DNA of 64,000 nucleotides. It comes from Curvularia clavata. Taxonomy: Eukaryota. Made by a program: the position numbers and the translations under genes. The stretch covers positions 3,906,001-3,970,000 of the forward strand of contig CP089274.1 of NCBI GenBank assembly GCA_023920165.1. The letters are read 5' to 3'. Shown here piece by piece: positions 12,255 to 52,016 of this stretch; the first letter of the stretch is position 1, and the number at the start of each line of letters is the position of its first letter. The notes below the pieces were generated by a model. The model worked only from the letters and a program-made list of their open reading frames with translations, was not told the DNA's origin and did not search any database.

Positions 12255-12400
12255 TGTTACAAGTAACAAGAAAGATTCTCTCCTTGACGAGGAGCAAAGG
12301 TTTAAAGGTCAACCAACGCCAGAAGATAGGGATCATCGTGGGGCGACGATCACGTGACATGGAATTCCGCCAAGGCTGGCTCAGTTGTCATCCCACGCGG
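12255..12400 (+). repeat. Family A-related LTR fragment
   Basis: Starts TGTTACAAGTAACAAGAAAGATTCTCTCCTTGACGA like 1044; similarity lost after ~150 bp. Confidence 0.75.
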
Positions 12401-12745: not shown

Positions 12746-12883
12746 CAGAGTTGCTAACAATCAAGTTGATCGGCAGATTGATTCGCGAACGTGCCAGAGG
12801 CAGGGACGTGTATAGTGTCATGGAGCGTGATGAGGCACGTTCGCGAATCAATCTGCCGATCAACTTGATTGTTAGCAACTCTG
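12746..12883. mobile_element. 138-bp MITE, Mutator-like
   Basis: ~50-bp perfect TIRs CAGAGTTGCTAACAATCAAGTTGATCGG...; 9-bp TSD ATTCCTAGA/ATTCCTAGG. Confidence 0.9.
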
Positions 12884-13796
12884 ATTCCTAGGGTTAGGGT
12901 TGGGCAGGTACATGACCGAGTGGTAGGCGATCACCTGTACGTATATACTTCTCTAGGGATGAATTTTTAATCACTCCCACTCTCTTTGCAGGTCCTTCCA
13001 GGCGAAGGGGTTGAGAGAGATGGACTACCAAGCCTTACACCCTATGCAATGTGTGTAGAGATGAACTCATTTTCCTCGTATTAGACTAAAATAAAGGCTA
13101 TAGGTTAGCAGTCTCTGAACGGACGAAGACTGGATTCAGGCTGGCCGCGGAGTACCTTGTAGTTACGATCGCCGATTGCTCTAGCACCAAGTGAGGCGGC
13201 CCGGGGTCGTGCGCAATCGTCGATGACAGTAAGTAATAAGTTCAGATTGTTGCAGGCTAGCTAGTAACATCACTACTTATGGCTTATAAACGCAAAAATA
13301 ACGTTAAACATCTACTCTATGGAGCCTGTTTTATATCTGGAGGTCGAAGCTTATGCCTTGGTCCTGTTCACTACTCATGGGGCCTCTCTGCTCTTATCCC
13401 TGCTGTTGCGGCGTTACGTCTGACTCTCCCACTTCATCTCTGTGGCCCTCTTGCTCTGCAGAAAATTAGCTTGGCATCCGCTGTGCATACATGTCTGATA
13501 CCGGTGCATAAGCTTATTCGGTGCTATACCAGGAAGATACAGCTTAAAGTTCATTTTCAGCACACCTACCCGAAGAGCGGCTTTACCTACCTGTGTCGGA
13601 CCCTGATGACTATCTCGCTACGCCACCCGGCCGAGGATACTTCCAATCGAACGCAGAGTATGATTCTACCGTTGCTCAGCTAAATCGCCGCTAAACGTCA
13701 CGGCCAGTATGGACAGTTTCACAAGTGGTCTACCGTTGCGCAAAGCAGCTCATCCCCGCTGCTCTCCTGCTCACGATTCTATATCTCTTTACCAAG

Positions 13797-15618
13797 ATGC
13801 CCTAGCCTTCAGAGTTTCCCTAGAGGAACCGACTTTCTCCTAAAGCCAGACCACGTCCGCTAGCTCATCTAATGCTCCTGCAAATGGCAAGGTGTACCCA
13901 TCGCCACACACTTCCTCCAAGGCTCAATCTAATAAAGATAAGCATAGCCCGGGAGAAAGTGGCGACGCCAGGGAGTGGTTCGAAAGCACGGAAGAATACA
14001 GGGCAAAGCAATCCCTTCTTTCCTGACAGCGAGTTTTCTAAGATGCGGTCGGGAGGTCCTGCTTAAGTGAAGTGATATAGATGGCCCACTGTCTTATCTA
14101 CCCGACTCCTCCATACCCCATATCGTTCAAGACGACCATGTACTGCGCGGCTACTCGTACCGACAAGCCTCTATGCCCTATCGCCCTAGCAGGTGCGGCG
14201 CCAGTGCCAGTGCCAGTGCCAGTGCCAGTGCCAGTGCTAAAAGCGGCACCATGGATAAGTTTCGGAGCATCATCGATGATCTGACTGTCGGAAATAAGAA
14301 ATTGAAGTAGTAGTTGAAGAAATACGAGAGGCTATATGATGATTACTTACAAGATGAGAAATTCTTTGAGATTCGCTTTCACGGTCTTGCTGAACATAAA
14401 AAGAGGGAGCTAGTGGAAATCCTACGAAAGTTTGCTGCAGATATCGAGAGAGATCTGAACGCAGACTACTAGCGTACAACCAAGGCACGACATAATCAGC
14501 ATCAAACTATACAATCGTACCTTAGCGACACACCCGTGAACTTGCTTGCGCAGAGCCAAGTAGCCCTGACGGAAGAGTCCAAAAAGAAATCGGTAGTGTA
14601 TCGTTTAGAACAGATCTTCGCAGGTAAGCAGTCAACGCCCAGAAGCCAGCCGCAGCACATGCAGCAAGAAGAGGCTGCCCAACTAGCCGCTATGGACGAT
14701 CGCCGTATGAGAGAAGCTACAGGCCAATGCTCTAAGCCTGAAGGCAACCGCGAAGCACGCGTAATATCAGCACGAGCCGACAAAGAAAGTATTACTGTAC
14801 AGAATGTTCTATTAGAAAAATTTCTTACGATCCCGTCCTTCCACGAACACGTATTTGAGGGCCCCGAGTCCCCTGAACAGCGCCCAACAAGACCGCAAGA
14901 CCTAGATCTGTACCAAGCAGAGGTGCCGACCAAAAACTTGGAATATGTCCGGCATCTCGGTTTCTCCTTGCCCGACATGATCTCAGATAGATCGCCGCAA
15001 GATGATCATGAATAGTTATATCTTAACCTGCTTTGTAATATGGTGCAGCTTCACACGGTTAATGTTACGCCAGATTTCGTAAAGGAAGCAATAACTGAGT
15101 ACAGTTCTAAGTTTGAGCTTTCGCATGATGGACAGAAAGTTCGCTGGAGGGGCAGCCGAGAAGTTACCACAAGTGGCGGCGACAGCTCATCCAAAGATCA
15201 AGAAAAGCACCTCCCTTATGACATATGCGGACATAGCGAATCGTCCGCTAACCACCTCGAAACAAAGCCGGACAATAATGCTGGATTGAGAACCGACCCT
15301 AGACGACAAGTAGAACGAAACAATTGTAAACAAAATGAACAGGATCAGAACAAGTGTCCTTATATACCTCTATTCTCCCACAGCAAACTTTTATATGATG
15401 GGAATGATCTTTGTGACTTTTCCATGGACTCGTCGAGCAACTGGTCTAACCAGGTTCTGCAGTCTGGTGACTTTTCCGAGTTTGGAGGTTCAGCATTGCG
15501 GAGCTATGTAAAAAAAGGCGGCAACAGCCCTATGATTTTTTATAGCAAAGCAAAGTTCTATACAGATTTGACTAGTGACCGCTACAATTGTTCCAAAATC
15601 GCCCCTGGATCTTATATG
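13797..15618 (+). pseudogene. frq: Frequency (FRQ) circadian clock protein homologue with RIP-type stops, truncated by MITE+LINE; 5' boundary uncertain
   Basis: One frame 14251-15618 gives FRSIIDDLTVGNKKLK, FEIRFHGLAEHKKREL, KKKSVVYRLEQIFAGK, PEQRPTRPQDLD, *LYLNLLCNMVQLHTVNVTPDFV, DGQKVRWRG, MIFYSKAKFYTDL, all recognisable FRQ blocks; TAG stops near 14308-14313 and 15013. Confidence 0.93.
14201..14236 (+). repeat. (CCAGTG)6 microsatellite, Ala-Ser repeat in the frq frame
   Basis: Directly visible hexamer repeat. Confidence 0.9.
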
Positions 15619-15756
15619 CAGACTTGGGAACAATCAATTTGATCGGCCGCTTGATTCGCGAACATACCAGCTGTGGGTACGTGCACGGTTTCACGGAGCA
15701 CATTTTGGCACGTTCACGAATCAAACGGCCGATCAAATTGATTGTTCCCAAGTCTG
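15619..15756. mobile_element. 138-bp MITE related to 12746-12883
   Basis: Imperfect ~50-bp TIRs CAGACTTGGGAACAATCAATTTGATCGGCCG...; same length and TIR core. Confidence 0.88.
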
Positions 15757-18700
15757 CGACTGCGAGACAGAAGTATGAATCAGTACACCACACTAAGCAT
15801 ACTACAGTACAACGTACGCAAGTCGAGGGACATGGTAATGGCGACGCTGCTGCGAGACCCCCAGATACACGAGTACGACATTCTAGCCATCTAGGAGCCA
15901 TGGAGGAACCCGTATCTGGCGACTACTCACTACCTAGCAAAGGACGTTTTCCACCTTTGCTATCCAGCAGTAGCAGATGAAGAAGACCCGGCGAGGGTCT
16001 GTTTCTTCGTTAACAAAAGAATTGACTATAACAGATAGCGCTTTAAGGAATACTTGAGAGACGTCTGTTCTCTCGTCATCGAGCCGAGCAGGGACTAACA
16101 GGAGTAGTAGAGTGTGGCGATCCACAACATCTACAATGTAGTAGGAGGCGGGGATTATATAGGCTCTACGCTTATAGACGTCCGTGCAGTCCTCGAGAAG
16201 TATAGCAGTAATAAGCAGATACTACTAGGCGATCTCAATCTGCATCACCCTCTGTGAGGAGGTCAGAATGTTAGACACATTGACCTATAGGCAGAAGACT
16301 TGAAAGCGATTATAGAAGACTTTAACTTTAGTAATACGCTAGCGGCTAGGACAATTACATACGGAGAAGCCGCATAGCAGACTACCATTGACCTATGCCT
16401 CGTCACCATCGGCCTCGTCGACAGAGTGATTAGAAGTCAAGTAGACCGCGACCTCGACCACGACTCTGACCACCTGCCGATAAGCACAGTGCTTGAAATG
16501 ACGGTGCAACGCCTGCAAGAGACAACAAAGAGAAACTAGAAGCGCATGAATGAGAAGACGTACCTAGAGGCCCTAAAAGCGACTCTACCGCCACTACGCA
16601 GGCCAACAACTAAGCTAGCACTCAACAACTACGTCCGAGACGTGACTACTGCTATCAAGACAGCATCAGAGAAGGCGACTCCGCAAATAAGCATCTCAGC
16701 TCAGGCAAGAGAAAGATGAATGGTGGAATGCAAGACAGTTCTAGCGGAAGCGAAGAGGCTTAAAAGATAGCACAGCCAACACAGCACAGAGGAGACGTGG
16801 CAAGCATATCGAAAAGCGAGAAACCACAAGGCTAGAGTAATCCGCAAAGCAATAACTCAGATGCACAGAGACCGAGTAGAAGAGGTAGCACAGTCACCAG
16901 AGAAGCTGCGGAAGCTCACAAGCTAGGCCAAGACAAGAGGCAGCGTAGCCTCTAGGGTCACGCGTGCTATACGACACCCAACAACACAACACGAAGTCAT
17001 AGAGCCAGCCAACAAAGCAACTCTATTTCAAGATGCCTTCTTCCCCACCCCATCAGCAGCAGATCTGACAGACATACAGGACGCCGAGTACACCGACCAG
17101 ATCGAGTTCCCTACAGTAACGGAAAAGGAAGTAAGGGACGCGATCCGTGCAGCAGCACCATTCAAGGCGTCTAGGCCAGACAGTATAGCAAATCGAGCGT
17201 TACAGGTAGGGGAGAGGCTAATCACAAAACATTTCACAAAAATAGTCAACTACGGCCTGCGTCTAGAATACTGCCCTTCTCACTTTCGTGAGTCGACTAC
17301 AGTCGTCCTACGCAAGCCAGGCAAAGACAACTACACCATACCTAGAGCATACCGGCCGATCGCGCTACTTAACACAGTTGGCAAAGTCATAGATGCTGTT
17401 ATTGCTTAACAACTTAGCCACCTAGTTAAAACAAAGCACGTGCTGCCCGACACGCATATGGGCGGCAGGAGGATACGCTCTACTAAACATACACTGCATG
17501 CCGTCACAAGCAGGATCTACCAGGCATAGAACAAAGGCGACGGCCAGGTGGCGAGTCTCCTGCTACTCGATATCTCAGGCGCCTTCGACAACGTCTCGCA
17601 CCCACGACTGCTCTATAACCTGCGCAAGCGAAGGGTAGATAAGAAGACAGTTAAGTAGATTGCAAGCTTTCTTAGTAATAGACACACTAGAATCGTAGTA
17701 GATGGTTTCACATCATAAGAGTACGCAATCAACACGGGCATACCGTAGGGCTCGCTACTCTCGCCCATTCTCTATCTTTTCTACAACGCCGATCTTATAG
17801 ACAAGTGCAATAGAGAAGCCAACATAACGTCCACAGGATATATAGACGACGTAGCCATCCTTACATAGAGCAATATAGTAGCACAGACATGCAGCACACT
17901 AAGTCGCATTCTCGAGAAAGTACAGCGATAGGCTATCACCCACGCCTCGGTCTTCGCACCAGACAAGTTCTAGCTGATTTACTTCACACGCTCGCGTACA
18001 CGCATCAACAGAAGCAGGACAGTGCAGACTAGCTAGGGCGAGGTGACGCCTAAGCTAACGTGCAAGTATCTAGGCCTAACTATGGACTCGACGCTGCAAT
18101 GGAAAGGATATATAGAAGAGATCAGGCGCAAGGCGACAAAGATAGTCAGCGCGCTCAGCTGCCTCGGAGGCTCGACCTAGGGCATTACGCTTGCAGACAT
18201 GCGGAGGCTGTACGAGGCCACAGCACTGCCATAAATAATATATACCTGCTCCATCTGGTCGCATGCCAGCGTTAAGGGCAAAACATATACGAAGAAGACA
18301 CTCAACATCCTACAAAGCATATAGGCAAGAGCAGCAAGAGCCATATGCGGAGCATACAAAGCCACATCTAAAGCAGCACTCGATGTCGAAGCACACCTCC
18401 TACCAATCGAGCAGCAGATATAGAAGCATAACGCCGACGTCATCACTCGGCTTCTCTCAAGCAAGCACATGGCATATGTTTCGAACCTTAATGTAAGCAG
18501 GCCACAACCCGCCAGCGTAAGCATACGCCGCATCAGACACGTCGACTCCTGGCAAAAGATATACGATGATATGAAGGGTCAGCGCAGACAGAATCTCGAG
18601 ACGCAGAAGCCAATTCCACCCTTCATTACCCCGCCTTAGCGACACGGCCGAAAGACCCACATAGACAAGAGAGCCGAGAAAGCACGTAGTCGACATGACA

Positions 18701-19965
18701 GGGAACATGAGAAGGACCAAAGCTTTAGTATCTACACCGACGGCAGTGGCATAGATAGCAAGATTGGTGCTGCAGCAACATGCCCACTCACACAGCAGAC
18801 CCGCACAGTGCACATAGGGCCAGACACAACCTCGACAGTCAACGCCGCCAAGCTACAAGGCATCAGCCTCGCACTACAAATAGCACAAGAGTGCGCAGAG
18901 CGAGGAGGTGAGAGGCGGAAGGTAGCCATCTACACAGACAACCAGGCGGCCATTTAGTCAGTGGCCAAGGCTGAAGGTCGATCAGGAGCATACATTCTCG
19001 CAGAAATTGCAGAACAGGTCAAGACGACCCAGGACATGGACCGGCCAGTGACATTAAGGTGGATCCCAGCCCACACCGGTATCCCAGGAAACAAAACCGT
19101 TGACAGGGCCGCCAAGGAGGCCACAGGATGGAGAGAGGACGGCCGCAGACACCCGCCAGCAGATACGCCGCCCAGGCTCTATCCAATCAGGTCGACCGTC
19201 AGGCGCTGGTGCAGGACTCAAACAGAGCGAGCATGGGCAGCTAAGTGGCGAACAGAGGCGAAAGGTCGAGCAACATACAGACACACACCGTGGCCTACTA
19301 AGAAAGTCCTTTAGATACATGAGGGCCTTACTAAACGACAGAGTGCGCTGCTAGTGCAGCTGCGTACTGAGAAGATAGGCCTACGCGACTTTCTCTTCAC
19401 CCAAGAGCGTCAGGTGTGACCAGCTCCCGCTGCCAGTGCGGGGAGAGACGACAGACTGTCGCCCACATCCTGCTCCACTGCAGGATGCTTAAGGACCTCC
19501 GGAACCAGGTATTCGGCAACCTCCGCGAACGGCATAACCTTCGGGCCATCCTAAGTGAGCCACAGCTAGCCACCAAAGCTATCCAGTTTGTAGAACAAGC
19601 GCAGATCCTTGGGCACGTTGGGATCGAAGACGCGTAAACAACAGCCGAGCCCTGGGGGGAGACTGTAGGTATCGCAGCCGCAAAACACGAGGCAGCACGC
19701 CTCTACGAGCCTATAAGCACAGCATAATGTTAGTAGAGCCATTATCTAGATAAGGTGCCAGCCAGATTGTAGATAGTGGTGGAGGGGAAACGGCAGGCCT
19801 CTAGGAACAGCTGGCTTTCCTAGGGGAGTGACGTGGGGCGGCGCGGATTAACGTCTGCGTGGCGTCGGCTGTTGGCTATGCCAGCCATGCCGGGTATAGC
19901 TGCGGAGAAAACGCGGCTGAAACCGAGTAGGACTCAATCAATCAATCAATGAATCTAATCTAGTC
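15757..19965 (+). mobile_element. Tad1-like LINE, ORF2 only (APE-RT-RNaseH-CCHC, 15775-19637), RIPed, lacking ORF1
   Basis: ILQYNVRKS...DILAI*EPW (APE), SDHLP, YRPIALLNTVGK, LLDISGAFDNV, YIDD, IYTDGS, WIPAHTGIPGN, CQCGERRQTVAHILLHC; (TCAA)n tail at 19934-19950. Confidence 0.95.
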
Positions 19966-20683
19966 TATGCAGACTGATTTGCTGCCCAGGTGCTATATCT
20001 CCACGCATCAACTATGATACAGAGCGTTTTTTTAGGTGCACAGCCACTCGGTAAACTATGCCGTTGGCACTAGGTAGTCTGAAACTATGGGGCCGGTGTT
20101 GACATCCAGCCTATTACATTAGGTACGATGAATGAAGTGAAAGGCGCGTCCTTTGATATGCAGCGGCACAAGCTACAATAGGCTGAGATCAGAACTGGAA
20201 CTATGTGGGGAGCGACAGTAGCGGGAAATGGCTTGCAGGCGCTGGTTTTCCGAAAAAAAACAATGGACGATACGTGTGAGGAGGTGCTGACCTCTGAGAA
20301 GTACGAACAAGCATCGCGGGCGATTTCATATCAAGTGGATTTTAGGAACTAGACAATTGTTCTAAGTGGCAAAGATAAGTTTAAGTATTTATTCAACAGG
20401 CTTCCATGTGGATTTAAGGATAGAAAAAATGCACATCGCAATATTGTAAGCCTTAAAATCAGTATGTGCGACTACACTCAGGTGGTTTATGCATGTTGGC
20501 ATAACAGACATATTGTTTCAGGATGGTGTATGGAATATCAGAAAACTGAGAAAAGGTGCCCAGTCAACCTTACTGCAATGTGCGTTGAAACCTTTCAGCA
20601 ATCCTAGGATGACATGTTAATACCAATCAGACAGTATCGAATTGCTGAAAGATGTCCGGACTGCAATCTACATAATTCGCACC

Positions 20684-21135
20684 TGTTACAATCAACAGGA
20701 ATGATTCTCTCCTCGAAGAAGGGATCAGGAGTTGAAGACCAACTGCCGTCCACGTGAGAAGGTAACGATCGTCGCGGTGTGACGATCACGTGATGTACCA
20801 TCCGCCAAGATGTGTCATCCTGCTAAGGGTGGGACGGTAGTGAGTTTCGGCAGTGAGGTTGAGGATAGAGGTGCCATCACAGACTTCCAATAAGGGCGCA
20901 GGGCCAAGGGATAGATAGGATATCAGGACCTAAGGCAACAGGTGTAAAGGATGGATAGATTTCATTAAGTACACTGGTTGTGGTCAACTCGTGCCTTCTT
21001 CTCTTACCCGGATCGGTACTTAGTTATCTATCGTACGCTCAGGTGCGGGGATGTGTGGTAAAAACAATTGTGTGTATTAATTGCCTCCGCTATCTACCAT
21101 CTTCATTTATGTGTGGTGCATAGCTATTTGTTACA
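20684..21135 (+). repeat. Divergent family A-like solo/chimeric LTR
   Basis: TGTTACA start, GATTCTCTCCTCGA, GATCACGTGA and GTTGTGGTCAACTC shared with LTR 1044; 3' part resembles 23970-24050; no TSD. Confidence 0.65.
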
Positions 21136-21388
21136 AACTGCGCAGCTGTCGAAAGCATAAACTTTGTTAGTAATACCAACCTACTGATTAACCGTGGATT
21201 GCCCGATAGCCTCTATGTAAGCTGATGAGACGACGTAGAGAACAATGAATCAATCCTCTACACAATTTTCCTCACGCACCAAAGAGTGCGACAGTATTGC
21301 TTATTCTGGTTGAGGGTAGATACAGTACGGATTCCTTATCCGAAATCATGATAATTGGTTACGGGCATCTACTCTCGAACCAACATCC

Positions 21389-21760
21389 TGTTACACGGGG
21401 TTAGGCTATACTTCCCTAGTCTCGGTCCGGGTTAGGGTGAGACGGTCAGATGCGGTAAGCCGTGCGATTGTCTGGCGATTCGTGGTGGAAAGAAGTTGTG
21501 GATGTCAACTAAAGGTAAAGGATATCAGTTCTATGTGCGATAGAATAACCAAGTATCAATCTGTGTAAGAGAAGAACTTATGAGAGTTGACCATAACGAG
21601 TGCGATAATGAAATTCGTCCATCATTTATACCCATTGCAATCTGTCCTGGCTTCAAGCTTCCATCCTGGAGTCAGTGACTGCTAGCCCTTCCTGTTAGAC
21701 CTTGTCCTTACAGTGCCGGGGTGGCTTCACTGATGCCGTCGTCTTAGCGTGATGACAGTC
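21389..21760 (-). repeat. Partial family A-like LTR, inverted
   Basis: TGTTACACGGGG...TTGTCTGGCGATTC...GAGTTGACCATAACGAGTG matches the reverse complement of LTR 1044-1550. Confidence 0.75.
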
Positions 21761-22069
21761 AGGCGATCGGTGCGGGGCGCGCAGATCCTTTCGGTTGACA
21801 TCTGGCCACTCACGTTGCATAGTTCCATTCCATCTGCAATAGATGATGTAACTATGACAATAGGCAACGCAATGTTATTAGTGATCTCTTCGAAAGGGTT
21901 TCAATCGGTCTCCATATCTTTGCTATCCCCATAAGAAAAAAAATGATATGGTCGTGGGGTAATATGGTATTTCATGGCCATGTTGCTCCCGGAAGTGCTG
22001 ATTGGAAATGAATATGATAATCCCCAAAAAATGCAATGGTGTTATCGCGTTCAAGGTCATATCAAACAT

Positions 22070-23108
22070 TCATGGCTGGAACTTGTCAGATGAACATATT
22101 TCAAAAAGTTGTTTTGTTGAATTCACCCTGTATGACCCGTTTACGACCATAGGCTCGGTCTGCCCCACAACAGTAATATCGGTGTCCATGCGCACGTGTA
22201 GCGTCATTCCCATGTAAACTTCGCTGTTCAAGGTTTTTACCGCGTGCTGCGCCAATTCCTTCGAGGCAAACTTGGCAATGGCGGCGCCTTTGAAAACCCC
22301 TGTCTTGTTGTCTCGAAGGAACTGGATGTCAATGGCACACCCTACTGTTTGCAACAGCAAAGCATTGAGATCTTCCATGGTGCATTTGCAGCTCAAGTTT
22401 CGGATCGAAATACCATGGGCTTCTGTGAGTAGGGCTCCCCCCTGGATGTTGACGGGTATTCCGTTGGTGCTACTTGAGTAGAGCCGTGGGCTTGACATAC
22501 TATAAGTAGGATAGACTAGAACAGGGGCATATCCTGGTTGCTGCTGCGCTTGCGAATGGGCTTGCATCTGTGGGTACATAGGATACGGGTAGCTGGACTG
22601 TGCTGGCACATATGGGGCCGAAACTGCGGCAGATGCCGTTCGACCAACACTCAACTGGTTGACTCTTCCAATGTCGATGCCGCAGCGTCCAGTGGAGTGG
22701 CCACCTTCTGGGATCTCGGGAAATACAGCAGAACAATTACACCGAATTAACCGGTAATCGTCACTCTTACGGCTGGTTTCCCAGACATGCACCAGAATGC
22801 CTTTGGCTAGATAATAGACCTCTAGAATTCGAGTCAATATTCTGTTACATCATTCAGAGCTGGGAGCACATACTAGATGCCGCATCCGCATCTTCTCTGT
22901 TTCCTATTCGACACCATCCCTGCATCTCCCCTCTTCGGTGACCTTGACTGGAATATACTTCGGCCCAACCCGGTTGCTGCTTGACCACTTTACGAAGATG
23001 ATCTTTGAACTCTTGCCATCCCGCCAGATATTGTGCATAGCGGGTCGCGCCAGATACGACAAGCAAAAAGTCCCCATCGCCTTCTTTCCACGGACCCGAG
23101 TAAGACAT
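22070..23108 (-). CDS. RNA-binding protein with two RRM-like domains, apparently intact; intron 22822-22873
   Basis: Exon 1 has WQEFKDHLR pseudo-RRM motif; exon 2 has ISIRNL (RNP2) and KGAAIAKF (RNP1); GTATGT...CTAG intron joins the two ORFs. Confidence 0.85.
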
Positions 23109-23765
23109 ATAAGTGGGAAGGAATCAGTCGAACTTGGGGTGTTTCTAAGAGGGATAATAATCTAATCTCTAAGAAGATAATATAGGAAAGAATTGAGTGC
23201 AGGGTAATTCTATAAATCGGATAATGTAAGAAGCCTAATAGTAGGGAAAAAGATCATACAGGATGAGTACCTAAGTGGAGTAGTATTGGCACCGTACTTA
23301 TACCTTCCCCTCGGTGGGCTGCTTGAAATCATACTCCTGCCAATGCACATCATGCCGCGCGGCTAAGGATACTCATACTTTCGTCTTTGGAGCTGATCCA
23401 GTTGACGTAGACTGTGGCGTCAATCGGCCATTGAAAAGGAAGCCCACGAAGTCCGCCCACTTTGCCGAAAGATCAGGGCTAGAGCGGTACCTGGAGCGGG
23501 TGGCCTAGATCCTGTATGGTAGCCGTCAAGTGCTAATGGTTGGGCTGCAAACGGAAGGCTTCATGGCCATTGTCAAGTCTGTCTTTGAGAGTCACGCCAG
23601 CCTTTTCAAATGCAGTGTAGCCTTAGCGAAGCTCTCACAGCATCAAAATTGTCATCTTGAGCAGACTGCACATTGTGGATACAGCAGGGAACTCTTATCC
23701 GAAATCATAATGATTGGTTACGGGCATCTGCTCCGCAACCAACGTCCGTCTGTGCAGCAAAAAAC

Positions 23766-24620
23766 CTAGGGCTGAGTGCTTAGGGCTACAGTTCCTAGCT
23801 ACAGTGCGAGGTGTGGCACGCAGACATGTCAGCACGGTACTGCATGCCAAGTACTACAAACAGACGCACGTCTAGTGGGGAGCGTTTTGAAGACTTTGTC
23901 GTCCACGCGGAGAAACTGCCGGGTTCTATACTTATGTAAGCAGTTGAAGTTGTGGGAAGTATTGTGTCGCACGCGTGGGGTGCGGAGAAAATTGATGTGT
24001 ATTATGTCTGCTATCTACCATCTTTATTTATTTGTGGTGTATAGCTGTTGCTTTTTCTTGTTGAGGTGGTGCATCCTTGTTGCCGTTACAGTGGCTTGTT
24101 GCTTCGGCTCAGCTGAAGTCGTTGCTTCTGTAGCCTTGTATAGCCTGCGACATATTGTGTGTTGTTGTGTGTATCATGATAGGAGCAAGTTTGAATACAG
24201 TGTCTGTAAGCAGTTGAGGGAATGGAAAGTATTGTGTATTGTGTAGTAAATGATGCTAAGAGCAAGCTTATAATTTATTACTCTAAATCGACTTTTTAAG
24301 ACTGTGATTAATCTTGACATTTGCTATTCTGGCTTTGTTTCTAGCCTACCGAGCTATTCACAGAAGTATATTATCGCGGAGGAGCAAGGGGGTGTTAGAG
24401 GAGAGTTAGTCGATTGCATTAATAGAACGAGCGATAGCATGGTCAACAACATGCTGTTTAGCATCGGAGGCTGATATGCTAGAAGAGTAGTAGCTATAGA
24501 ATTGACACACGCTGAGCTTAACACTATATAACAGCGCTGGCCTGACGCCGAAGGTCCAGATCAAAGAATGTCTCGTTATACTGGGTGTCTCGTTACCTAA
24601 GGACGCATCTTAGTTAAGGA
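23766..24620 (+). repeat. Dispersed repeat homologous (inverted) to 62860-63367, with an LTR-like insert at about 23935-24245
   Basis: Shared blocks CCTAGGGCTGAGT..CAGTTCCTAGCTA..GTGTGGCACG, CCTGACGCCGAAGGTCC, TGTCTCGTTATACTRGGTGTCTCGTTAC. Confidence 0.8.
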
Positions 24621-25428: not shown

Positions 25429-25879
25429 CACCTAGATTATTGTCTTGTATCATGAAGATTACCCAAGACTTGAAATGGCAGTTGGATATTTCGCAGATGG
25501 CGTGATTTGTTGCGTCAAAATCTCGCTGATGTGGGTAGCCGTGTTGTGTGCTTCCTCAACAACCGGTTAGCTACATTATTGTTGTGTTTGCTAATAATGC
25601 GTCGCCACTCTTCCTGCACCTCTCTATAACAGCTCTCGTTTTCGTGTCTAGACATATGTATGAGCTGTAGTTTCAAGAGGACCTGTTTACTACAGCGATA
25701 TACTTGCTCATATCTTGGTACTTATATCGGCTTGCTGGAACACAACAGCTTTAGACCTGACATCTTCGCTTCCAGAGGTTAAAAACGGATCGTCACAGCC
25801 ATTTGTTCTACTGCGCGATGCTGAGGTATGATTAATGTCATCTTAGATGTCTTTTGAGGGAATAACTCGAAACAGCCTA

Positions 25880-27815
25880 CTCGTCCCACTGCATGGGACT
25901 AGGCCCAATGCAGCAGTACTAAGTATCCCACTTAGTCCTATACAGCTCAACGCAAATCCCTAGCTCAACGTAAAAATTATAAAATAATAGCACCTAGAAT
26001 TAATTTATTTAGCAATCTTGTAAGATATAGTATCTATGACTTAAAACTCTCGTAGGTGTAGTTATAGAATATTGTCTGTGAGGGCTGAGAGGGCCCCACG
26101 CGCGACAACTAAGACTTAGTTCGATCTATAGTATTCTTCCTAGCTGATCGCTAAGCTGCTTTGAACGCCCTCAACGCCTTAGCTTTCGCCCTTTGGTCTA
26201 CTTTTGATCGCGCCTCTCGCGCAGTCAAGATCCCTCCCTTCTATACTTACCTTGTTGATGGAGTTTGACAAGCTACACGCGCGCGCGCAGCTGCTATTAT
26301 TATTAATAGTTCTTGCTCTGCTAGGGCCTGCGCGTGCCTACTAATAACAGAAGCCTTTGTAAGCTTTAAAACACGCTTAATTATAATTATACTATCCTTA
26401 TACTATTCTCTCGTCTTAATTGTAAACTCGACAAATGTTCTAGATATTATTGGCGTAGGTGTTGAGACAAGCGAGCTTTGTGGAGATATTTTATCTCGAG
26501 GAGGGTGATAGACCTTGTACAGCACTCTCTCTAGATCTTAGAGCCAGATTCCTGCCAGCTCCTAGACTATATGGATTGTCGATTATTTAAAGGCTTATTA
26601 TCGTACGCGATATAGCCCGTTTAAGAATTCAACTTTATTATAGTCAACACAGCCTTCCCGCATCGCTATTTCGACAGCATTTCGATAGAGCTTTTTGTAT
26701 GATTAAAATACAGCGACGTCGAGAGGCTATAGATTGTAAGAAGTATGAGGCGGTAGCGTGAAACACACAATACTCTGCGCGTCGCAGTAATCAAGGAATT
26801 CCTTTATGCAGTGTGAACCAAATCTATCAAATATTAACAACCTCCACAAGTCTATTTGGCGACGCCTACTCCAGCTATCGAAGTGCTCTAGCCAGCCTAG
26901 TGAGAGCTCGTCGTTATTATATCCAGTTTTACTAACTGTTATAGCGTAGGAAGCAGGTAGTAAGGTATTTTTATACCACTTTTCTAGGTGCGCGCTTCTC
27001 TTGAGGACTAGGAAAGATGGTAGGACTACTCCATCGCCGGAAATTGTCTCAATTGCTATATAGAAGTCTCGATTTGTATCGCTACCTAATTATATAGCGT
27101 CAATACCTGTCGTAATAACCCACTGGCTGCCACCGACGCCTAAACGGAAGCCTGTTTCGTCCATATTATAGGTGTCGCCTTGCTAGATCGCGTAGTCGTC
27201 AATAACGCGTTTAAGACGCTTGAAATGAGCTTCGTAGTTGCCTACTGTATTAGCAGCCACACGATTAAGCTCCTGCTTCTTCTGCTTCTTTCTTCGATAG
27301 TCAGGGTTGTCCCTTAGCCATCGCGAAATCCAGTTACGGCCTAGGCGTGGGGCCTTCCCTAACAGATCTTCCATATCTAAGATACGCTGCGCAGCGCCAA
27401 TAACTTGAGGAACAAGAGCAGGCATCTCTAAACGATCGCAGCGTCGTATATAAGTCTTCAGAGCTTCGTCCTATACTAGATTAAGTCTTCAATTTACCCT
27501 AGGGCGGTCCATCTTACTCTGTCGCCTGTAGGAACGCGCGTATAGTCGATTGTACGGGACATTATATTAACGCGCTGCCTCAGCCACTAATGCGATCTCT
27601 CTATTGCCGAGGGCGTCAAGAGTATCTTTAATGCGATCTTCAATATTAAGCACATTACCGTATTGAAAGGCTATTATGTTGACGTGATTCAGCGTTTTTA
27701 GAAGGTAGGCAGGTGATGGTTTTGCGTTGAGCTAGGGATTTGCGTTAAGCTGTACAGGACTAAGTGGGACACTTAGTACTGCTGCATTGGGCCTAGTCCC
27801 ATGCAGTGGGACGAG
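25880..27815 (-). mobile_element. Full-length Tc1/mariner (pogo/Fot1-like) DNA transposon, RIPed
   Basis: ~95-bp TIRs CTCGTCCCACTGCATGGGAC..., TA on both sides; YNMDETGFRLG and LPPHTS..L*PLDVAVF motifs on minus strand. Confidence 0.95.
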
Positions 27816-28779
27816 TAAATGGCCTAATAGCCCAATGCGTCCTTGAGCTCTCGCATGAAACTGGACAGCGCTACACTACGTATATCGAAGCGCCGGAGCA
27901 AGAAAGCCCCGAAGTCATGGTTACAGTGGTCGAGAACGAGAGCAAAAGCTGATTCCACATGGCAATCACGGGTACCAATACCGACATCGAGAACGCAAAG
28001 GCGGTCTGCTCCCAAGCCGTCTTGTGCAGGAGTGTGGGGGATGATCCCGAACTATATCACGCTATTTACGACCACCTTACCCAGATGGTTTTCTTCTGTC
28101 TGTGTAGCCCCTCAGGGGAAGACCTTGAAGATATGTCCTGTTACTCAATGCACAGAGAAGCAAGTAAGATAGCACAGTGGTTGGAAACGTACATTGTCTC
28201 AAACGCAGAAGTCTTACGTGGGTGAGATCGGGATCATCAAGGCTGTAACTAGCATAATCGACCACGCATCAGTGTTGCATGATCAGCATTGTCGCGCTCT
28301 CGGTGGAGCAGACTACATCTTAGAAACCGATTTCCTAGAACAACCAATAGCTATTATTTTGCTCACATTCAGACCGTTTTCGATATAAATCTTTTTCTAG
28401 CCGTCGGGCATTGGCGCACGATCATGTACCCGTGATATTGTAGCGCTTAGCTTTGTCTGCTCTGTGCGGCTGATGAGGGATCGCCGCACTCTCCATGGCG
28501 AGGGGCAGCGCGCTATCAAGACAACAGGCTGGCGGTCAGTGGTAGCGTCTGTCCAGCGGTGACAGCTTGGCTACTACAGCAAGTTTTCTAATTAATAGCA
28601 ACGGTTGGGACGTAATTCCGGCGCATGCTGCGGGCAATCGCCCGCACGCCCGTGTCTGCTCTGATGGTCGCTGCACTCATTCACTACGAGCAGTTATGCT
28701 GAATGGAAACGTCCAGCTCATCAACAATATATTTCAATCTAATCGAAGCGATCTTGACCAATTATATAACCAATCGAGC

Positions 28780-30049: not shown

Positions 30050-30061
30050 TATGTAACGTTA

Positions 30062-31916
30062 ACGTGTTGGATAAGCGAGTGAGCCAGGCAAGCGAGTGAG
30101 CCACCTCACCAACTTCGCGCATCTATACAAGCGTGTAGCTCCACTATAGTATAATAATATAGATATATATTAATATAGCAGATTAAGTAGTATCTATAGT
30201 ATCGTTTTTACACGTACGCGAATTATGGCCAGTCTCTCTACACCTGCTACAGCGCGTAAGAGCCCGGCGGCTAACACCTGATCGCTCTCCTCCCTGACGC
30301 TCTTCATGAGCAATTTGCTCATCAGCCTCGCGTTAAGCGATAATATCCTCGCCAGCTCCTTTCATAAGCACTCCTTGCTTCTATATCCGCTTTCTTTTAC
30401 GCTCTCTACGCTTTAACGCTACCTCATTAGCTCTCTTAAGATTAGCGATCTACTCGCGTATTAGCTTAGCTAAAAGTATTATTATCTCTGCCCTCTTCTT
30501 AAGCTAGCCAATCGCCACAATAATCAACGCTAGTAATAAGCTTTTGTGCCGTCGAACACGATCACTTATTAGCGTTAATTAAGCTTTAAGCTCGCGTACA
30601 TTACCTAGCGTATAGGCCTGCTAGAGAGCTTCTGCGAGAGCAGCTGGAGGAGTAGGCGTACGTAGCTGCACGTCAAGCTTTAATAGAATAGTGTCTGGCT
30701 AGAGAGGAACAAGGCCTGCACCTCAAAAAGCTAAGTAGATATTAGCTAACGTAAACAATTAATTAAAGGCTGCTTTAAATGCTGGTAGAAACTCGAGCTT
30801 AGTGATATAGTTAATATGGTTGCGTATTAGACTCTCCACCTCACAGCTATACGCACGCTTCAATGGCGAGAAGCAGCTAACGTCAAGAGGCTGGAGTAGG
30901 TAAGACGAGTAAGGCGGCATACAGAGCGTATAGATATTGTTCTCCTTATAGAGCTCTTGGAACTTAAGTGACTGGTAGCTCTTATGGCCGTTAAGAATAA
31001 GCAGCTAGCGTGCCCTAACAACCTTGCTATCTATATACTTGATAAAGTGCTTTAGCTACTCAACTCCTAGCTCGTTAGTCATCTAGCTGTTATTGCTGAC
31101 TGCGATCGCCCAGTCGCGTAGGATCTCTACCTCTTCGTACTAGGCAGATAGGTAATACTTGCTAGTAAAGATTAGAAACGGCGGGATAGACCAGCCGGCT
31201 GCGTTAATCCTAGCAATAAATGTCACCCACTCGCGACCACCTAGCTGGATAGCCTTTGGCCGAGCTCTTCTTTCTAATGCTGTAATGACAAGCTAAGTAG
31301 TAATCTTGCCTATTAAGAAGCCAGCTTCGTTGAAGTTGTAGACGTCCTCGTCGCAAATACTATACTTAGCCTTTGTCTGCTCTATAAGCTTAAACTAGCT
31401 CTTAATTAAGACTAGATCTTTATATAGAGCTCTCTATCTATCGTACGCCCAATTAAAGCGCGTTGTAAGACTGTCTGTACGCTTAACAAAGTTAGCTGGC
31501 CACTTCTGCCCAACCTGGCTAGCGCCGCGCGCAGCCAGCAGCTTATCAGCTATATCGCGCACAGCAGCGTACATAGGCGCAAATCTACGTGAATCGAGAT
31601 TAAGTATATAATCAACTATCACCTTCTCTTCTAGCTTAGTTAGCTTCTTTAAATTGGGCTGACAATCGCGTCGGGCAGGGTAACCAGCGCGTCGGCGGTG
31701 GAGTGTAGCTCGCGAGATATTGAACGTCTTAGTAGCGCATCTTTTAATTTTAATTTGCTTTATATTAAGAGCTGAAATTACAAGATATATATCAGTCTTA
31801 TAAGAGACCTTAGAAGCTTGTTGGGGGGACGCCATAGTTGATTGAAGTTGAGGCGTTGTGGAAAGTTGGTGAGGTGGCTCACTCGCTTGCCTGGCTCACT
31901 CGCTTATCCAACACGT
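30062..31916 (-). mobile_element. Full-length Fot1/Pot2-type DNA transposon (1855 bp), RIPed
   Basis: TIRs ACGTGTTGGATAAGCGAGTGAGCC..., TA TSD; transposase from 31835 with HTH, YNFNEAGF, CMPPYSSYLLQPLDVSCF. Confidence 0.96.
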
Positions 31917-32755
31917 TATATATAGATACCCCGCATTTTGCTTCACGGGTGTTGACAGGGATAATGCATTCACTGTGATTGGAGCGATCCGAGCAAACAA
32001 AGCGCGCTAGGGATCGATGCGATGAAAGTTTACAGTAGTTACTCGCAAGATTAGATTGGGCATAGCCGAGGCAGTGAACGCTTGCGCGGTCCATTTCACA
32101 ATCGGTGCTTCCAACCGGCAAGCGAGTGATTCGTCTCCAACTGAATCGCAAAAGCGCTGTTTCTAGCACAAATCGTGTGGCTAGTACAGGTCTGTTCAGA
32201 ACAAGAACGCTTTCCCCCCCCCTATTTGGTGGTAGACATTCAAGATCAGTTACAGAGATTATTCCTACAGCCTTATAGCAATGTTCGTTGCGTGCCTGGG
32301 CTTTCTAGTTATTGGTAGTTAAAGTCCATACTCCTATTTGTCTCAGCATATGATCAGTCAGAGTATCTCGCTATGCAGTGGGGATGCTAGTAAGCGATCA
32401 ACTCTTCGTGAGTGGCTGTTGAGTCGAATCTTTAGATGCGGCGACACAAAGCCTTGGGATACGAACCTTCTTCAGAACATGATTACTAATTAGCAACTGT
32501 AATCACAATTGTATATAGCCTACTGGAAAGTAATCTGGAGGACATGCTATGGCATGATAGGTAATCGACCTTAGAAGATCAATGGGTGACCCAAAATTCT
32601 AACCTAACTAACCACCTTCTTACACGGCGTATTGGCTTCTCGAAAAGCTAACCGCTGCGTCCTCATCTGCTATTGAACTAGCTCTTCAAACGCCTCTTCA
32701 TTAATGAATCATTATGTATCCCGAGCTGATCTTTTTATTGTTCTCTTCTATTTAT

Positions 32756-33748
32756 CTAAAACCTAAAAGTATTTCTAATATCGTGCCAGGCTCCCGAAAA
32801 GCTCTTTAAACAATGAACCCTTAGGCATTGTTTATGGGTGAAAAGGCTACATAGAGCATGCCCTTCTAGTAGGCATGCTTTCTGCTCATCTCCCTTACTA
32901 CCTATGGACAGCGCATCTGGTGTAGTCGCTGGATCACACCCAATAAAAGATATCTCGCGCTGATTGTCTATCGATTTGATGAAGCAGAGAGCCCTGCCGA
33001 AAGTGTCAAACTGAATTCGGAGCTGTGCTGCTGAGCACCAAGGCGTGCCAAGCAGAATTCCTCGTCGGAGCCTCCTCACAATCCGAAAGTGGGTCGGTAT
33101 CAAAACACCACCAATCGACACTGGCACACTATAGGCAGTGCCAACAAACGGATCCATCCCTCCATCAGCGGTAATCATTCCTTGTTGAAGCTCTTTCGGC
33201 AAAGTTGACTGATCTGTTTCTGTGATACAGACGTTTAAAGCTCTTGCAGTTGATAGTTGCATCACGTTCAGCTGCGATCCTGTATCAATAAGCGCTCGGC
33301 GCATCCCACCTTGTAAGGCAATCCAGCAGGTTGGCAGCTGGCCTATAATGGCGTATTGTCGATGATCCTCGTCTCCCTCCATTTGAATATCTGCAGGAAC
33401 TGCCGACTGCTCCTCAGCACACCTATCTTGCTCATTCTCCAAGCTATTTTCTTGATAGCCATCCATTTGGTTGGCTTCTCCGCCTCGAGGCTCAATCGCC
33501 AGCCGTTCTCGATCCATGTTCGGCCAGAGTCGCTGTAGAATATCTCCAGGAAGCCGCTTGCTCATATCTGGCCACCTGCTCCTACTCGGTACAGTCGGGG
33601 GTAAATACCTTTCGCAGTACTGTTTCTCTTTTGGTACTCGCAATCTGCGCCTTTGTGATAGGCATTCGTTATCCCTGTCTTGTGAATCTGCTAGATAGCT
33701 TTGACTTTCTTCTGCGAAGACATGTCTCATCATTGCTGCAATAGCCAT
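32756..33748 (-). CDS. Orphan retropepsin-like aspartic protease (gag-PR related)
   Basis: ALIDTGSQLNVM catalytic motif and ILLGTPW C-terminal motif in an open 330-aa frame; no adjacent RT/IN. Confidence 0.75.
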   Translation of the reverse strand: MAIAAMMRHVFAEESQSYLADSQDRDNECLSQRRRLRVPKEKQYCERYLPPTVPSRSRWPDMSKRLPGDILQRLWPNMDRERLAIEPRGGEANQMDGYQENSLENEQDRCAEEQSAVPADIQMEGDEDHRQYAIIGQLPTCWIALQGGMRRALIDTGSQLNVMQLSTARALNVCITETDQSTLPKELQQGMITADGGMDPFVGTAYSVPVSIGGVLIPTHFRIVRRLRRGILLGTPWCSAAQLRIQFDTFGRALCFIKSIDNQREISFIGCDPATTPDALSIGSKGDEQKACLLEGHALCSLFTHKQCLRVHCLKSFSGAWHDIRNTFRF

Positions 33749-34418
33749 ATCTCTGCGTATCTTCTTTTCCTGATAGACTGTCTTGGCCCCCCAATTAGCT
33801 CACCAAATATGTGGCACAATGGGTAATCGACCTTAAAAGATTGAGGAGCGACCTGCGATCAATTAGGCAGAAGGTGTATAGCTACTATTTAAATGCTAGA
33901 GTAAGCTGAGTGAAGAAGGTTCCCAAACGCACTCAAAGGAATTCCCAAGATATACTCCTAGATCACGTGCTACCACACGATAATACTGAGATTTAGTGGT
34001 ACGGCTTAAGTACGAGCCAATGACCACAATCTCTATTCCACTTACCCCAAAACACTAGTATGACTTGTGATGCTGGTTCTAGACGTCATTCACGTGCTTA
34101 TTCAACTAGCGTTATGTACGCGGCTGACAAAGTCTTGGTCACGGAGATGAGGAACGATTCGGTTTATAGAACAATAAAGAATATTTTGCACGTATACTTG
34201 CTAACTATCGCTATAACTTTGCAACAGCCCCATCTTCTTCAATCTTGGGAGCCCGACAATAAAAGGCGAATCCCTCCAAGTTCCTATTCCCCCATAGCAT
34301 GTGCCACTCTCTAAATGCTGAGCTTATCCACTAAGAATTTTCATTCTCTTTGTTTTGTTTAAATTACTTACTCCTTATCTTCAATAATACTCAAGGTAGA
34401 AAACTGGCAGGTGTCTTA

Positions 34419-36278: not shown

Positions 36279-36770
36279 ATGGCAGAACATCCTATCGAGG
36301 CCATCCTTCAGTATCATTTTTCCAACCATGAATTGCTTGACGAAGCATTGCTCGCTGCGGGGGCGGCAGCTTCAAGCCAAGACATAGAAGGTGACGTACA
36401 AGGCAATAAGCGCCTAGCTCTATTAGAAGATTCTATTCTACAAGAAGCTATTCTAGAGCCCTGGTACAATTCTGAGGAAAGTACTAGTGCGTATGCGCGT
36501 CTGTGAACGGTTCTTGAAAAACTAAACTTTCTAGCTAAGGGTTACAATAGAGTAAAAATTCTATGCAGGAACACAAAACTAAGCCAAGTAGCTAAGAGAA
36601 GCAAAATATCGACTTATGTTACCAAAAATCCATGCCAACAAGGTTAGGTGCCGCAAGAGACTACTACGTCAACAGTTGAGGCGTTAGTAGGAGCGATTTA
36701 TCTAGATAGTGGAAAGAACATATCGACGGTTAAGAAAGTCCTTAGGGCAATCGGGTTTTTTAAAGTATAA
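36279..36770 (+). pseudogene. Stand-alone mini RNase III-domain gene, one intron (36487-36534), in-frame stop
   Basis: LQYHFSNHELLDEAL...GNKRLALLEDS (signature, Gly>Glu) and STVEALVGAIYLDSG; TAG at 36645. Confidence 0.88.
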
Positions 36771-37029: not shown

Positions 37030-38690
37030 GTGCATCTTCAGCGCTATGAGCTCATAAATATAACAAAGATTCAACCTGCACTGAACTCGCCTATTCGGTC
37101 AGCTGAGAAGAGGGACAGAAGACGCACGACGCAGGATCGCCATGACATCAGACACTAACACAGAAAAGAGTGAAGACTAGACGCTGGCAGCTAAGGATCA
37201 TCTAGTCTGGTACAGCATTCAACTTCTCTAGTATCTTCACCATGAAATCATCTTTCGCCTATTTTAAAATTTGAGTGAGGTAGCACACTAGCTCCCGCGT
37301 GTGGCATTTGCGTGTTGTTCGCCATGTTCTGATATTGTGTATATGAGTCGCCTCTCTAAGTTTGAAATGTATCTACAACTTATGTACTGGACTCTTGGTC
37401 GTAATAGAGAAATAGAGCGGGGATCCTGCTGGAGATGCAGACTCTGTGGGTAGTACGACCTGATTCTTAAGGTTATCTAGTATTCTTAGTATATAAGCGG
37501 CACTAATAGTAGCTTGATTCTGCGTAGCCACCAGACCCCTATTTAGGCTTAAACTTTTCGTTTCTGTAATTAGAAAGGGAAAACGTAAGCCTATGGCAGC
37601 TATATGTGGGTCGCTCAGTATCGATCTAAAGCTTTGGTGTTTGGCCAACTGAACTTGATAGGGTAACGCGAAACTCCTGTCTTTAAGTCCTACTATAATG
37701 TTTGGCTTTAGTGTTGAGATGTAGAATGGGTTGGCAGCTTCGCTGCTGGTTGTATAAGCGATAGAAGGTGTGTATAGTTGTAGTGAAGGTACTGGTCCTG
37801 GGAATCTGGAAGCTGATTGTGAATTGAAGTTGGGGAGTATAGATTGTGGCTGTGGAAAGCGCGGTGTTGACGCACCGCTTTTATCGTCTGGTTGGGCCAC
37901 GCCAGGCGGCGAGGGCTTGAGGTTAGCGTTCTAGACTGGAGGGAGTATTAGCATTTTAGAATAATGCCTTAGATACGGTTTGCAACTTACGCTTCTCTGA
38001 TGTATGATATTGAAAGTTGTTTTGCGCTAAGTTGTCTATAAGACTGAACAAACTAGCTTTCTAGTCGTCTTCGAGCGAATAACTTCTTGTGTGATAATGT
38101 GACTGATCTAGGAACCTTTTTACATAGGTCGCCTGCTGTAAATTGTTTTCTGTTGTACTAATTACGTTATCTAAAGACTCTGTTCCTAGTATGTATCGCA
38201 CTTCGCATTTGATATCGTGCGGAAGTTCAGTTAGGTTGTTAATAAAGACTCTAGCGTAAGACATATTCTGGTTATAGTACGTTTGTGGTAATGTTTGTTT
38301 ACTAGAGCTAGGAGTTTGAGACGCACGTGTAGAACGCTTAGAGGAGCGTCTATTACGACTGGAGGAAATAGATCTGCTTTGTGGTGTTGGTGGTGCTATT
38401 GTGTTAGCTTTGCAGCTGATGACCTAGTGTGCTATTGACGCTGTTTTCTTATCTAGCTTATCTGAAATAGGTTGATATATATTCTTGAGCACGTCTTCGG
38501 TGCGTGTAAGCGACTCTGGGGATGCATGCGACAATTGTGACGCTGAGTTTGATAATTTCGATGGATGCGAATGGGGCGGAGATGTGTGGCGCGTCTCGCG
38601 GTTGACAGATTGTAGTTTGCGACGCTTCAAAAGGTGGTTGGGACGTTGCGAAAGCTGTGCAGTGTCCACGTCTAAGATTAAGTGCTTCAT
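37030..38690 (-). pseudogene. Fungal PD-(D/E)XK-nuclease-like protein pseudogene
   Basis: TLKPNIIVGL...RFPFLITETKSLSLNRGLVATQNQA resembles the PD..(D/E)xK core of common fungal nuclease-like proteins; many stops. Confidence 0.6.
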
Positions 38691-38889
38691 ACTTCAAAGT
38701 AGGTTGTGAAGGGCTATATAGGGTGTGGAAGCTCGCTGTTTAAGATTGCAGCTCTTGTTGTTAGGAATATTTTGAGGATCATAACAACCGGGAAAATCTC
38801 GGGCATTGGAGGTTGGTGCGGGGGCGGTGTAACGGGGCATATCGGCGTCACGGGAAGCTTGGCTCTCGTCAGCCCCACGAACACTCAAT

Positions 38890-39075
38890 TAGACTGGTAA
38901 ATCGGGTATTTAGCTAGGGCTATCGATTATCTTGGCCAATACTAGTCCAAATCAAGTAATTCTGACGTCATTAGAGAGCTAGCACTCTAGTCTAAATATT
39001 ACTAATATATTATTTTAGCTTAATACTAATAGTACTAGTGCTAGAGCTAAAAAAGGAGTAAAAATAGGGGTATAC
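38890..39075 (-). mobile_element. Half MITE (inverted copy of 51832-52016), cut by LTR insertion
   Basis: Near-identical reverse complement of the right half of 51626-52016. Confidence 0.9.
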
Positions 39076-51625: not shown

Positions 51626-52016
51626 TAGACTGGTAAACGGGTATTGACCCACTTTTCTTCTTTCATCAATATCTCATCAAAGACTAGTCCAAATCGAGTA
51701 ATTCTGACGTCATTTTAATGCCCTAAGCTAGCGCATTCTATCATGTAGTATAAAGCTAAGCCGTATCTAGCTTAGTTTAAAAGTTATTTAATAGCCCGTT
51801 TGTGAGCCCTAGGGCTGGGTTATGAGTCGGGTATACCCCTATTTTTACTCCTTTTTTAGCTCTAGCACTAGTACTATTAGTGGTAAGCTAAAATAATATA
51901 TTAGTAATATTTAGACTAGAGTGCTAGCTCTCTAATGACGTCAGAATTACTTGATTTGGACTAGTATTGGCCAAGATAATCGATAGCCCTAGCTAAATAC
52001 CCGATTTACCAGTCTA
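51626..52016. mobile_element. ~390-bp MITE with TAGACTGGTAAA termini (hAT-like ends)
   Basis: TIR TAGACTGGTAAA(T)CGGGTATT and subterminal inverted ACTAGTCCAAATCRAGTAATTCTGACGTCATT; no TSD found. Confidence 0.8.

Follow-up and report, generated by a model that had tools for sequence, protein, structure and literature searches.

We asked why a copy of the clock gene frq lies among transposons in a 64,000-nucleotide stretch of the Curvularia clavata genome (contig CP089274.1, positions 3,906,001 to 3,970,000; hereafter the window), whether it is the clock gene of this strain or an additional one, and what its ancestry might be. An earlier interpretation made without database searches (the sequence-only reading) had recognized frq at 13797..15618, and this identity is borne out by three matches to the Pfam FRQ model, at model positions 117-212, 263-369 and 416-675 of 983, with scores of 167, 77 and 37 bits, all above the curated PF09421 cut-off of 26.6. 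The same reading had offered a choice between an extra frq paralogue and a strain that had lost its clock gene, and had proposed a genome-wide FRQ search beforehand. That search revealed two frq loci in the assembly (32.4 Mb in 8 contigs), and the window copy is neither the sole frq nor syntenic with the core locus. Since the other match, at C5:2413405-2415858, is free of stops and lies on another contig, the clock gene was not lost; the window copy is a second frq beside an intact core gene, and it is the extra paralogue that remains of the two options.

The frq gene on C5 is the core locus. Its protein of ~980 aa shares 85% identity with the FRQ of Bipolaris and 84% with that of Exserohilum, and its neighbours are housekeeping genes (arginase, WD40, Pyr_redox_2/NDH2, Mis14 and RasGAP), of which the Pyr_redox_2/NDH2 gene lies 3′ of frq; in a Stemphylium gene model (P0082), this downstream oxidoreductase is fused to frq. 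A core orthologue should occupy the core locus and group with the frq of relatives, and the C5 gene does both, while the window copy does neither. The window copy is 42% identical to the resident core FRQ over 540 aa, and at the DNA level the two genes match at 65-71% in three short blocks. No near-identical DNA partner of the window copy exists in the genome, where a search returned only the copy itself and a 176-nt match of 71% to the core gene. Most fungi do have a single frq, as the sequence-only reading assumed, but for Fusarium accessory extra copies have been described (PMC11952111, PMC5870968). The core gene is most likely the sole clock-competent frq of this genome.

Structure and decay of the window copy

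Fifteen sequencing runs were listed by the words they share with the window, and contigs from two of them, X3 and X7, served for comparison; X1 and X2 were left out as possible sources of the window DNA, X5 and X6 because their pieces were short and of low depth, and X4, X8 and X9 were left out as well. None of the runs listed with window words was an RNA run, and six further runs under the same species label contained next to none of these words, which is no proof of absence. The X3 and X7 contigs, which come from two other organisms, are 89-94% identical to the window over the frq gene and parts of its upstream flank.

The start at 13797 proposed earlier had to be moved to the ATG at 13709 (Table 1), because X3 and X7 have ACG in place of the former codon (row 13798, T>C), and N-terminal FRQ homology sets in at 13709. 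Similarity to the closest full-length relative, L005, extends even further upstream, with a blastn block joining L005 7-979 to window 13454-14470 at 76%. Both X3 and X7 are one base shorter at 13993/13994, and the intron donor, GT in the relatives, is GC in the window copy (row 14030, C>T). The X3 and X7 copies have neither the MITE nor the extra base nor the longer microsatellite, and they share the 159-nt deletion, spanning its junction in the alignment without insertion; it hence predates the MITE, the frameshift and the truncation. A one-base gap at 14672 is peculiar to X7, a 54-nt skip occurs in X3, and L005 has a one-base gap in exon 1 (alignment A2).

Table 1. Features of the window frq copy, its neighbouring elements and unique-gene frames (window coordinates)
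Feature	Position	Strand	Remarks
MITE upstream of frq	12746..12883	.	same family as the MITE at the break point (78%); skipped in run X7
Upstream non-coding stretch	13454..13708	+	common to L005; blastn and alignment A2
frq exon 1	13709..14028	+	ATG 13709; in-frame stop 13841-13843; extra base near 13993 causing a frameshift
Intron	14029..14080	+	position as in core frq, from alignment
frq exon 2, truncated	14081..15616	+	runs up to the MITE; stops at 14308, 14311, 14470 and 15013
Hexamer microsatellite	14198..14237	+	24 nt longer than in related copies, in frame
Deletion junction	14463..14472	+	159-nt in-frame deletion (53 codons), short microhomology; RFAESGYAS block lost
MITE at break point of frq	15618..15757	.	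52-nt arms, 92% complementary
5′-truncated LINE	15758..19950	+	ORF2 from 15775: endonuclease, RT, RNase H
Aspartyl protease-like frame	32756-33799	-	
RNase III-like frame	36279-36770	+	
DUF7924 frame	37373-37930	-	
bHLH frame	52908-53453	+	
TauD frame	55421-56517	-	

Exon 2 retains the coiled-coil, VVxRLEQ and LYLNLL blocks, the latter two of which (VVRRLEQ and LYLNLL) we take to be FCD1 and FCD2; all three align, and two of the three have stops inside or beside them. The earlier claim that all main blocks are present did not survive, as nothing lies past model position 675 and the RFAESGYAS block is deleted, and tblastn of the window and the genome found no FRQ C-terminal piece. With five in-frame stops, one frameshift, the 159-nt deletion and the C-terminal third gone, the copy lacks the open reading frame of a functional FRQ; translation halts at codon 45, so that no FRQ can be made, and the copy cannot encode full FRQ. 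Also absent is the FRH-binding and WCC-recruiting C-terminal part required of a clock FRQ. In Neurospora, FRH is reported to bind C-terminal FRQ fragments, and the fragments 1-310, 311-628 and 629-989 to be arrhythmic, with none recruiting WCC (PMC10320511). The window copy is today most likely without function. A 118-aa fragment of this pseudogene exists as a protein record, and frq counts taken from annotation can include such pieces.

The MITE, the LINE and the 3′ break

The stops, the MITE and the LINE described in the sequence-only reading are all there, but a simple insertion of the two elements inside the gene is not, since frq is not resumed behind them: three frames of 19951-20702 were without Pfam match, and tblastn gave no C-terminal piece. 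The sequence behind the LINE was rejected as a frq continuation, being a repeat with two more copies in the island. As frq is not resumed, a 10-nt word that precedes the MITE and recurs behind the LINE was likewise rejected as a target-site duplication. The MITE at the break point has no matching target-site duplication and is missing in the related copies; in the X3 and X7 contigs the match ends at 15616, and other sequence continues from there. The LINE has about 28 stops (counted by eye) and an (AATC)n tail, and no close partner for it was found in the genome, only fragments of 66-89% elsewhere. A MITE that joins a cut frq to a cut LINE without target-site duplication fits an adjacent deletion or MITE-MITE recombination. 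LTR-like sequences at 12255 and 20684 were considered as a capture unit and dropped, because they align well over only ~110 nt and the window gene has an intron.

RIP-type change

Change of the RIP type in the window copy is real, as the sequence-only reading had proposed, but it is light. The composite RIP index over 13709-15615 is -0.31, hence not positive and below that of the adjacent LTR blocks, which reach up to 1.2, and TpA/ApT is 0.91 in the window frq versus 0.54 in the core gene and 0.61 in L005. Relative to X3 and X7 there is an excess of C-to-T and G-to-A change in CpA/TpG context: polarized transitions, with T/A rather than C/G in the window, stand at 141:77 (X3) and 154:106 (X7), as counted over all contigs compared, repeats included, and in a hand check of 40 of the 445 variant rows 27 of 37 transitions were toward T/A in the window, 15 of the 27 yielding TpA. 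The stops at 13841 and 15013 are each one CpA-to-TpA change away from L005, the stop at 14308 aligns to a Gln of the family, and one further stop sits at the deletion junction.

A near-identical partner copy, as RIP would lead one to expect, is not present in the genome. The argument that RIP needs a repeat, and that this frq was therefore once multicopy, describes a possible past but not a required one, because leakage of RIP into single-copy genes has been documented in the AT-blocks of Leptosphaeria maculans (PMC3105345). With RIP light and no partner at hand, leakage explains the change, and unique genes in the neighbourhood carry similar stops. As reported for the L. maculans AT-blocks (PMC3105345), a single-copy gene here lies amid RIP-degenerated transposons and shows C-to-T changes; there, however, effectors were diversified, whereas here a clock-gene copy decays.

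Phylogeny and sequence signatures

A FastTree phylogeny was built from 171 rows and 842 columns, comprising the window copy (14167-15618, with X at stops and exon 1 absent from the row), the core protein and 169 of 170 FRQ hits, P0170 being left out at 19% coverage. The window copy and P0121, the protein of L005, are sisters (SH 100), joined by Periconia macrospinosa P0122 and P0123 (100) and next by P0001 (98); this group joins 20 rows including Kalmusia, Bimuria and Paraphaeosphaeria of the Didymosphaeriaceae (100), and all of these fall within a 39-row Massarineae clade (99). Massarina, Lentithecium, Trematosphaeria and Periconia digitata are placed outside the grouping of the window copy with Didymosphaeriaceae. 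The core gene and Bipolaris are neighbours in another clade, which comprises 64 rows (100). According to NCBI taxonomy, Kalmusia, Paraphaeosphaeria and Periconia belong to Massarineae and Bipolaris to Pleosporineae, and the comparison with core frq that had been suggested at the outset thus puts the window copy in one suborder and the core gene with Bipolaris in another, on the strength of one FastTree. Such a conflict between gene tree and species tree (SH 98-100), accompanied by the signatures described below, is what a xenologue should display. The tree tool flagged the composition of the window copy, P0121, P0122 and P0123, and FastTree is prone to joining long branches.

In alignment A1, EGNREAR is found in 6 of 21 rows, all of them in-group (the window copy, P0121, P0122, P0123, P0001 and Kalmusia), and DLT[S/G]D in 9 of 9 rows of the window group and 1 of 12 others; P0121 is an exception in having WKG where the window group mostly has WRG. 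The states common to five Pleosporaceae rows, namely QQQE, a one-residue gap before GHGW, and HLExSRDG, are missing from the window copy. Exon 1, which the tree row does not contain, is 45% identical to Kalmusia over 74 aa without gaps, versus 39% to Bipolaris over 80 aa with 7 gaps. L005 matches the window at 75-76% in DNA over ~2.1 kb, upstream DNA included, and outside the frq region the two share no neighbours. We infer that the window copy was not derived from the resident core frq. Its best protein relatives are 57-66% identical, so far no high-identity donor has been found, and there is no closer relative among 1.84 billion cluster representatives.

Extra copies in other Pleosporales

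Because the FRQ of Periconia digitata groups elsewhere in the tree, with Massarina, P0122 of P. macrospinosa, which lies on a 38-kb contig, looks like a non-core copy too. A second FRQ group, distinct from the first and located mainly on small contigs, exists in both Paraphaeosphaeria sporulosa and P. minitans; it (P0027, P0030, P0034 and P0175-P0178) is placed near Bimuria in the tree, and P0175 represents two gene models within one P. minitans assembly. P0204 is an FRQ of 562 aa whose signatures are of the Pleosporaceae type; it, too, stops short of the C-terminal block and could represent either a third accessory lineage or an artefact of a contig end. The DLLATAR...IPAGSSAATAGGG C-terminal block is lacking in several of these proteins: P0121, P0122, P0174 and P0204 end before it, and P0030 and P0175 are deleted for it. 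An intact close allele of the window copy was found neither in word-indexed protein searches nor among the 1.84 billion representatives, which is weak evidence.

The island and its relation to Starships

The transposon-rich setting that had been read from the letters is confirmed by transposons and base composition around the window frq. The gene lies in an interstitial island of ~135 kb (C1 ~3.86 to 4.00 Mb, on a contig of 5.9 Mb) with GC of 0.31-0.51, TpA/ApT up to 1.6 and few long frames, and the flanks on both sides are gene-dense. Several of the unique-gene frames of the window (Table 1) have stops inside or beside them, and decay is region-wide. An RRM gene region at window 21800-23670 (frame 22070-22849, minus) has an 82% paralogous block at C8:1496766-1498662. 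Two DNA transposons of ~1.9 kb with terminal inverted repeats of 96-100% occupy window 25878-27817 and 30060-31918, and an inverted pair, 38888-39075 and 51831-52018, surrounds 12.8 kb of LTR-element DNA. At L027:2895-7870 (+), C1:3875304-3880489 and C1:3900692-3907089 lie LTR retrotransposons with long open frames; as these are open amid a RIP-marked island, insertions went on after most of the RIP.

Near the island edges, L021, L026 and L028 yielded 23 open frames, which were scanned against Pfam. At the left edge lies an NLR-like patatin-NB-ARC-TPR gene with long open frames (L021:2938-6150, minus; C1 ~3858900-3862150), its patatin and NB-ARC matches being below the Pfam cut-off, and just outside this edge is an open frame (C1:3853719-3856034, minus) that may be Tof1/Timeless-like and whose position beside the island is probably coincidence. 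The right part of the island has bZIP, CorA-like and MFS genes and a second beta-tubulin (L026:8717-10000 into L027; C1 ~3978500-3980030), the exons of which look open and which shares 87% identity over 175 aa with the beta-tubulin at C1:4642416-4642946; it might be one more housekeeping-gene copy of foreign origin.

The island resembles Starships as described in PMC10104507 in being large and RIP-affected, in combining accessory genes with transposons and perhaps in the patatin-NB-ARC-TPR gene at its edge, but no DUF3435 captain, defined ends or empty site were found here. The DUF3435 captain search gave six matches in the genome (on C7, C8 and C3) and none on C1; as five candidates were scored, a badly degraded gene could escape. 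DUF3723 had zero matches, as did the control. A captain-like DUF3435 gene at C7:2853198-2854514 (minus, three exon matches) likely belongs to a Starship in another part of the genome. Of 64 matches to window 19960-24300, ten fall within 110 kb behind it, and these small shared repeats constitute circumstantial evidence linking the island to Starship-type DNA. We do not class the island as a Starship.

Origin of the window copy

We consider it reasonably probable that a Massarineae-derived frq reached this lineage in accessory DNA and decayed there through deletion, RIP leakage and a MITE-linked truncation. The frq of a Didymosphaeriaceae-like member of Massarineae would have entered accessory DNA and been transferred horizontally to this Pleosporaceae lineage; the probable vehicle is a large mobile element that can no longer be recognized by its ends or its recombinase. 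Judging by the order inferred from related copies, the 159-nt deletion, shared with related organisms B and E, would have come before the microsatellite expansion, the frameshift, the light CpA-to-TpA change leaking from neighbouring transposons and the loss of the 3′ third at the MITE, all of which may belong to this branch. The sequence-only reading had called the gene possibly mobile, for which its placement in the tree, the signatures and comparable extra frq genes of other fungi provide support of an indirect kind. The main rival of transfer, and an unlikely one, is that frq was duplicated before the split of Massarineae and Pleosporineae, survived in accessory DNA with many losses elsewhere, and decayed here without any transfer. 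The large divergence of the window copy from all named relatives (57-66% at best) would be expected under such hidden paralogy, as would extra frq genes in several lineages (Paraphaeosphaeria P0027/P0030/P0034, Periconia P0122), yet the nesting of the copy in Massarineae, next to Didymosphaeriaceae, would require many parallel losses, and the derived states common to the window copy and Kalmusia also speak against it. A duplicate of the strain's own core frq, rapidly diverged by RIP and drawn to a false position in the tree, is very improbable: RIP-type changes do exist, and a long branch with odd composition was flagged, but light RIP cannot produce Massarineae-type residues or reverse the Pleosporaceae gaps, and the DNA matches L005 at 75-76% over ~2.1 kb rather than the core gene, with its three short blocks of 65-71%. 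The indel signatures appear largely to refute such an origin.

The remaining explanations concern the role of the copy and its place in the assembly. There is a small chance that accessory frq is, or until lately was, a selected short variant with a tuning or dampening effect on the host clock, of which the window would contain a dead allele. Such a variant would keep the dimerization and kinase-binding blocks and drop the C-terminal tail. Extra copies at separate places are without the DLLATAR block (P0121, P0122, P0174, P0030, P0175, P0204), although gene calling or contig ends may have produced some of these short proteins artificially. In the coiled-coil block, the window and L005 differ over 73 codons by 15 changes that are non-synonymous and 11 that are synonymous (hand count), below the neutral ratio; upstream DNA and the intron, however, align by eye about as well as the exons, and the nearest relatives look damaged too (L005 by its gap in exon 1, X7 by its gap at 14672). 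In Beauveria a second, short FRQ is reported to be functional (PMC7140403), but the extra copies of F. oxysporum are reported as expressed more than 100-fold below Fofrq1 (PMC11952111), and Neurospora mutants in the C-terminal D/E cluster, which may be the counterpart of the Pleosporales tail, are described as having about wild-type period (PMC10320511). That the island is contaminating DNA mis-assembled into the contig is extremely improbable, as it is embedded in 5.9 Mb between gene-dense runs and shares small repeats and the 82% paralogous block with other contigs, even though at least half of the window words occur in just two runs, both possibly the source of this DNA. Equally doubtful as the selected variant is a broader proposal, in which a mobile Pleosporalean frq lineage would cross suborders on giant elements, shed its C-terminal tail repeatedly and serve as a portable clock modifier, with the window holding a spent allele and related species the intact ones.

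Comparison with known systems and implications

Extra accessory frq genes are already known from Fusarium, and the interesting part of the present case is the foreign ancestry of the window copy. Core regulatory genes that have many partners are generally regarded as rarely transferred. A survey of 25 genomes noted three frq copies for F. oxysporum (PMC7493669), and ten frq genes, more than half of them accessory, with transfer between formae speciales proposed, have been described for this species (PMC11952111). Like the window copy, FoFRQ2-10 accompany one dominant core gene, lie for more than half in accessory DNA and are proposed to have moved horizontally, but their origin is placed within F. 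oxysporum itself (PMC11952111), whereas here a Dothideomycete pseudogene groups with another suborder. FGRRES_08069 of F. graminearum is similar in being a short second frq on another chromosome, patchily distributed and with the coiled-coil retained, yet it is reported as conserved in one population and perhaps functional (PMC5870968), while the window copy has stops and a frameshift before and in the coiled-coil. Beauveria bassiana Frq2 (583 aa) is also a second, shorter FRQ beside a full-length one; as described, it is functional, keeps the FRH-binding region and is without the coiled-coil (PMC7140403), in contrast to the broken window copy, in which the coiled-coil is kept and the C-terminal third is gone. 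Our literature search, with subscription papers and supplements outside its scope, found no accessory frq in Dothideomycetes or across suborders, and no text pairing “Starship” with “frequency clock protein”.

The biological weight of the window copy itself is limited, as the copy is dead. If its transfer is true, a cross-suborder frq, together with the extra copies in Periconia and Paraphaeosphaeria, would mean that frq capture of the Fusarium type recurs in Dothideomycetes. The findings suggest that accessory DNA can carry clock genes from one fungus to another, after which they decay, and the accessory frq sequences form a concrete set on which to ask whether such genes are selected clock modifiers or passengers.
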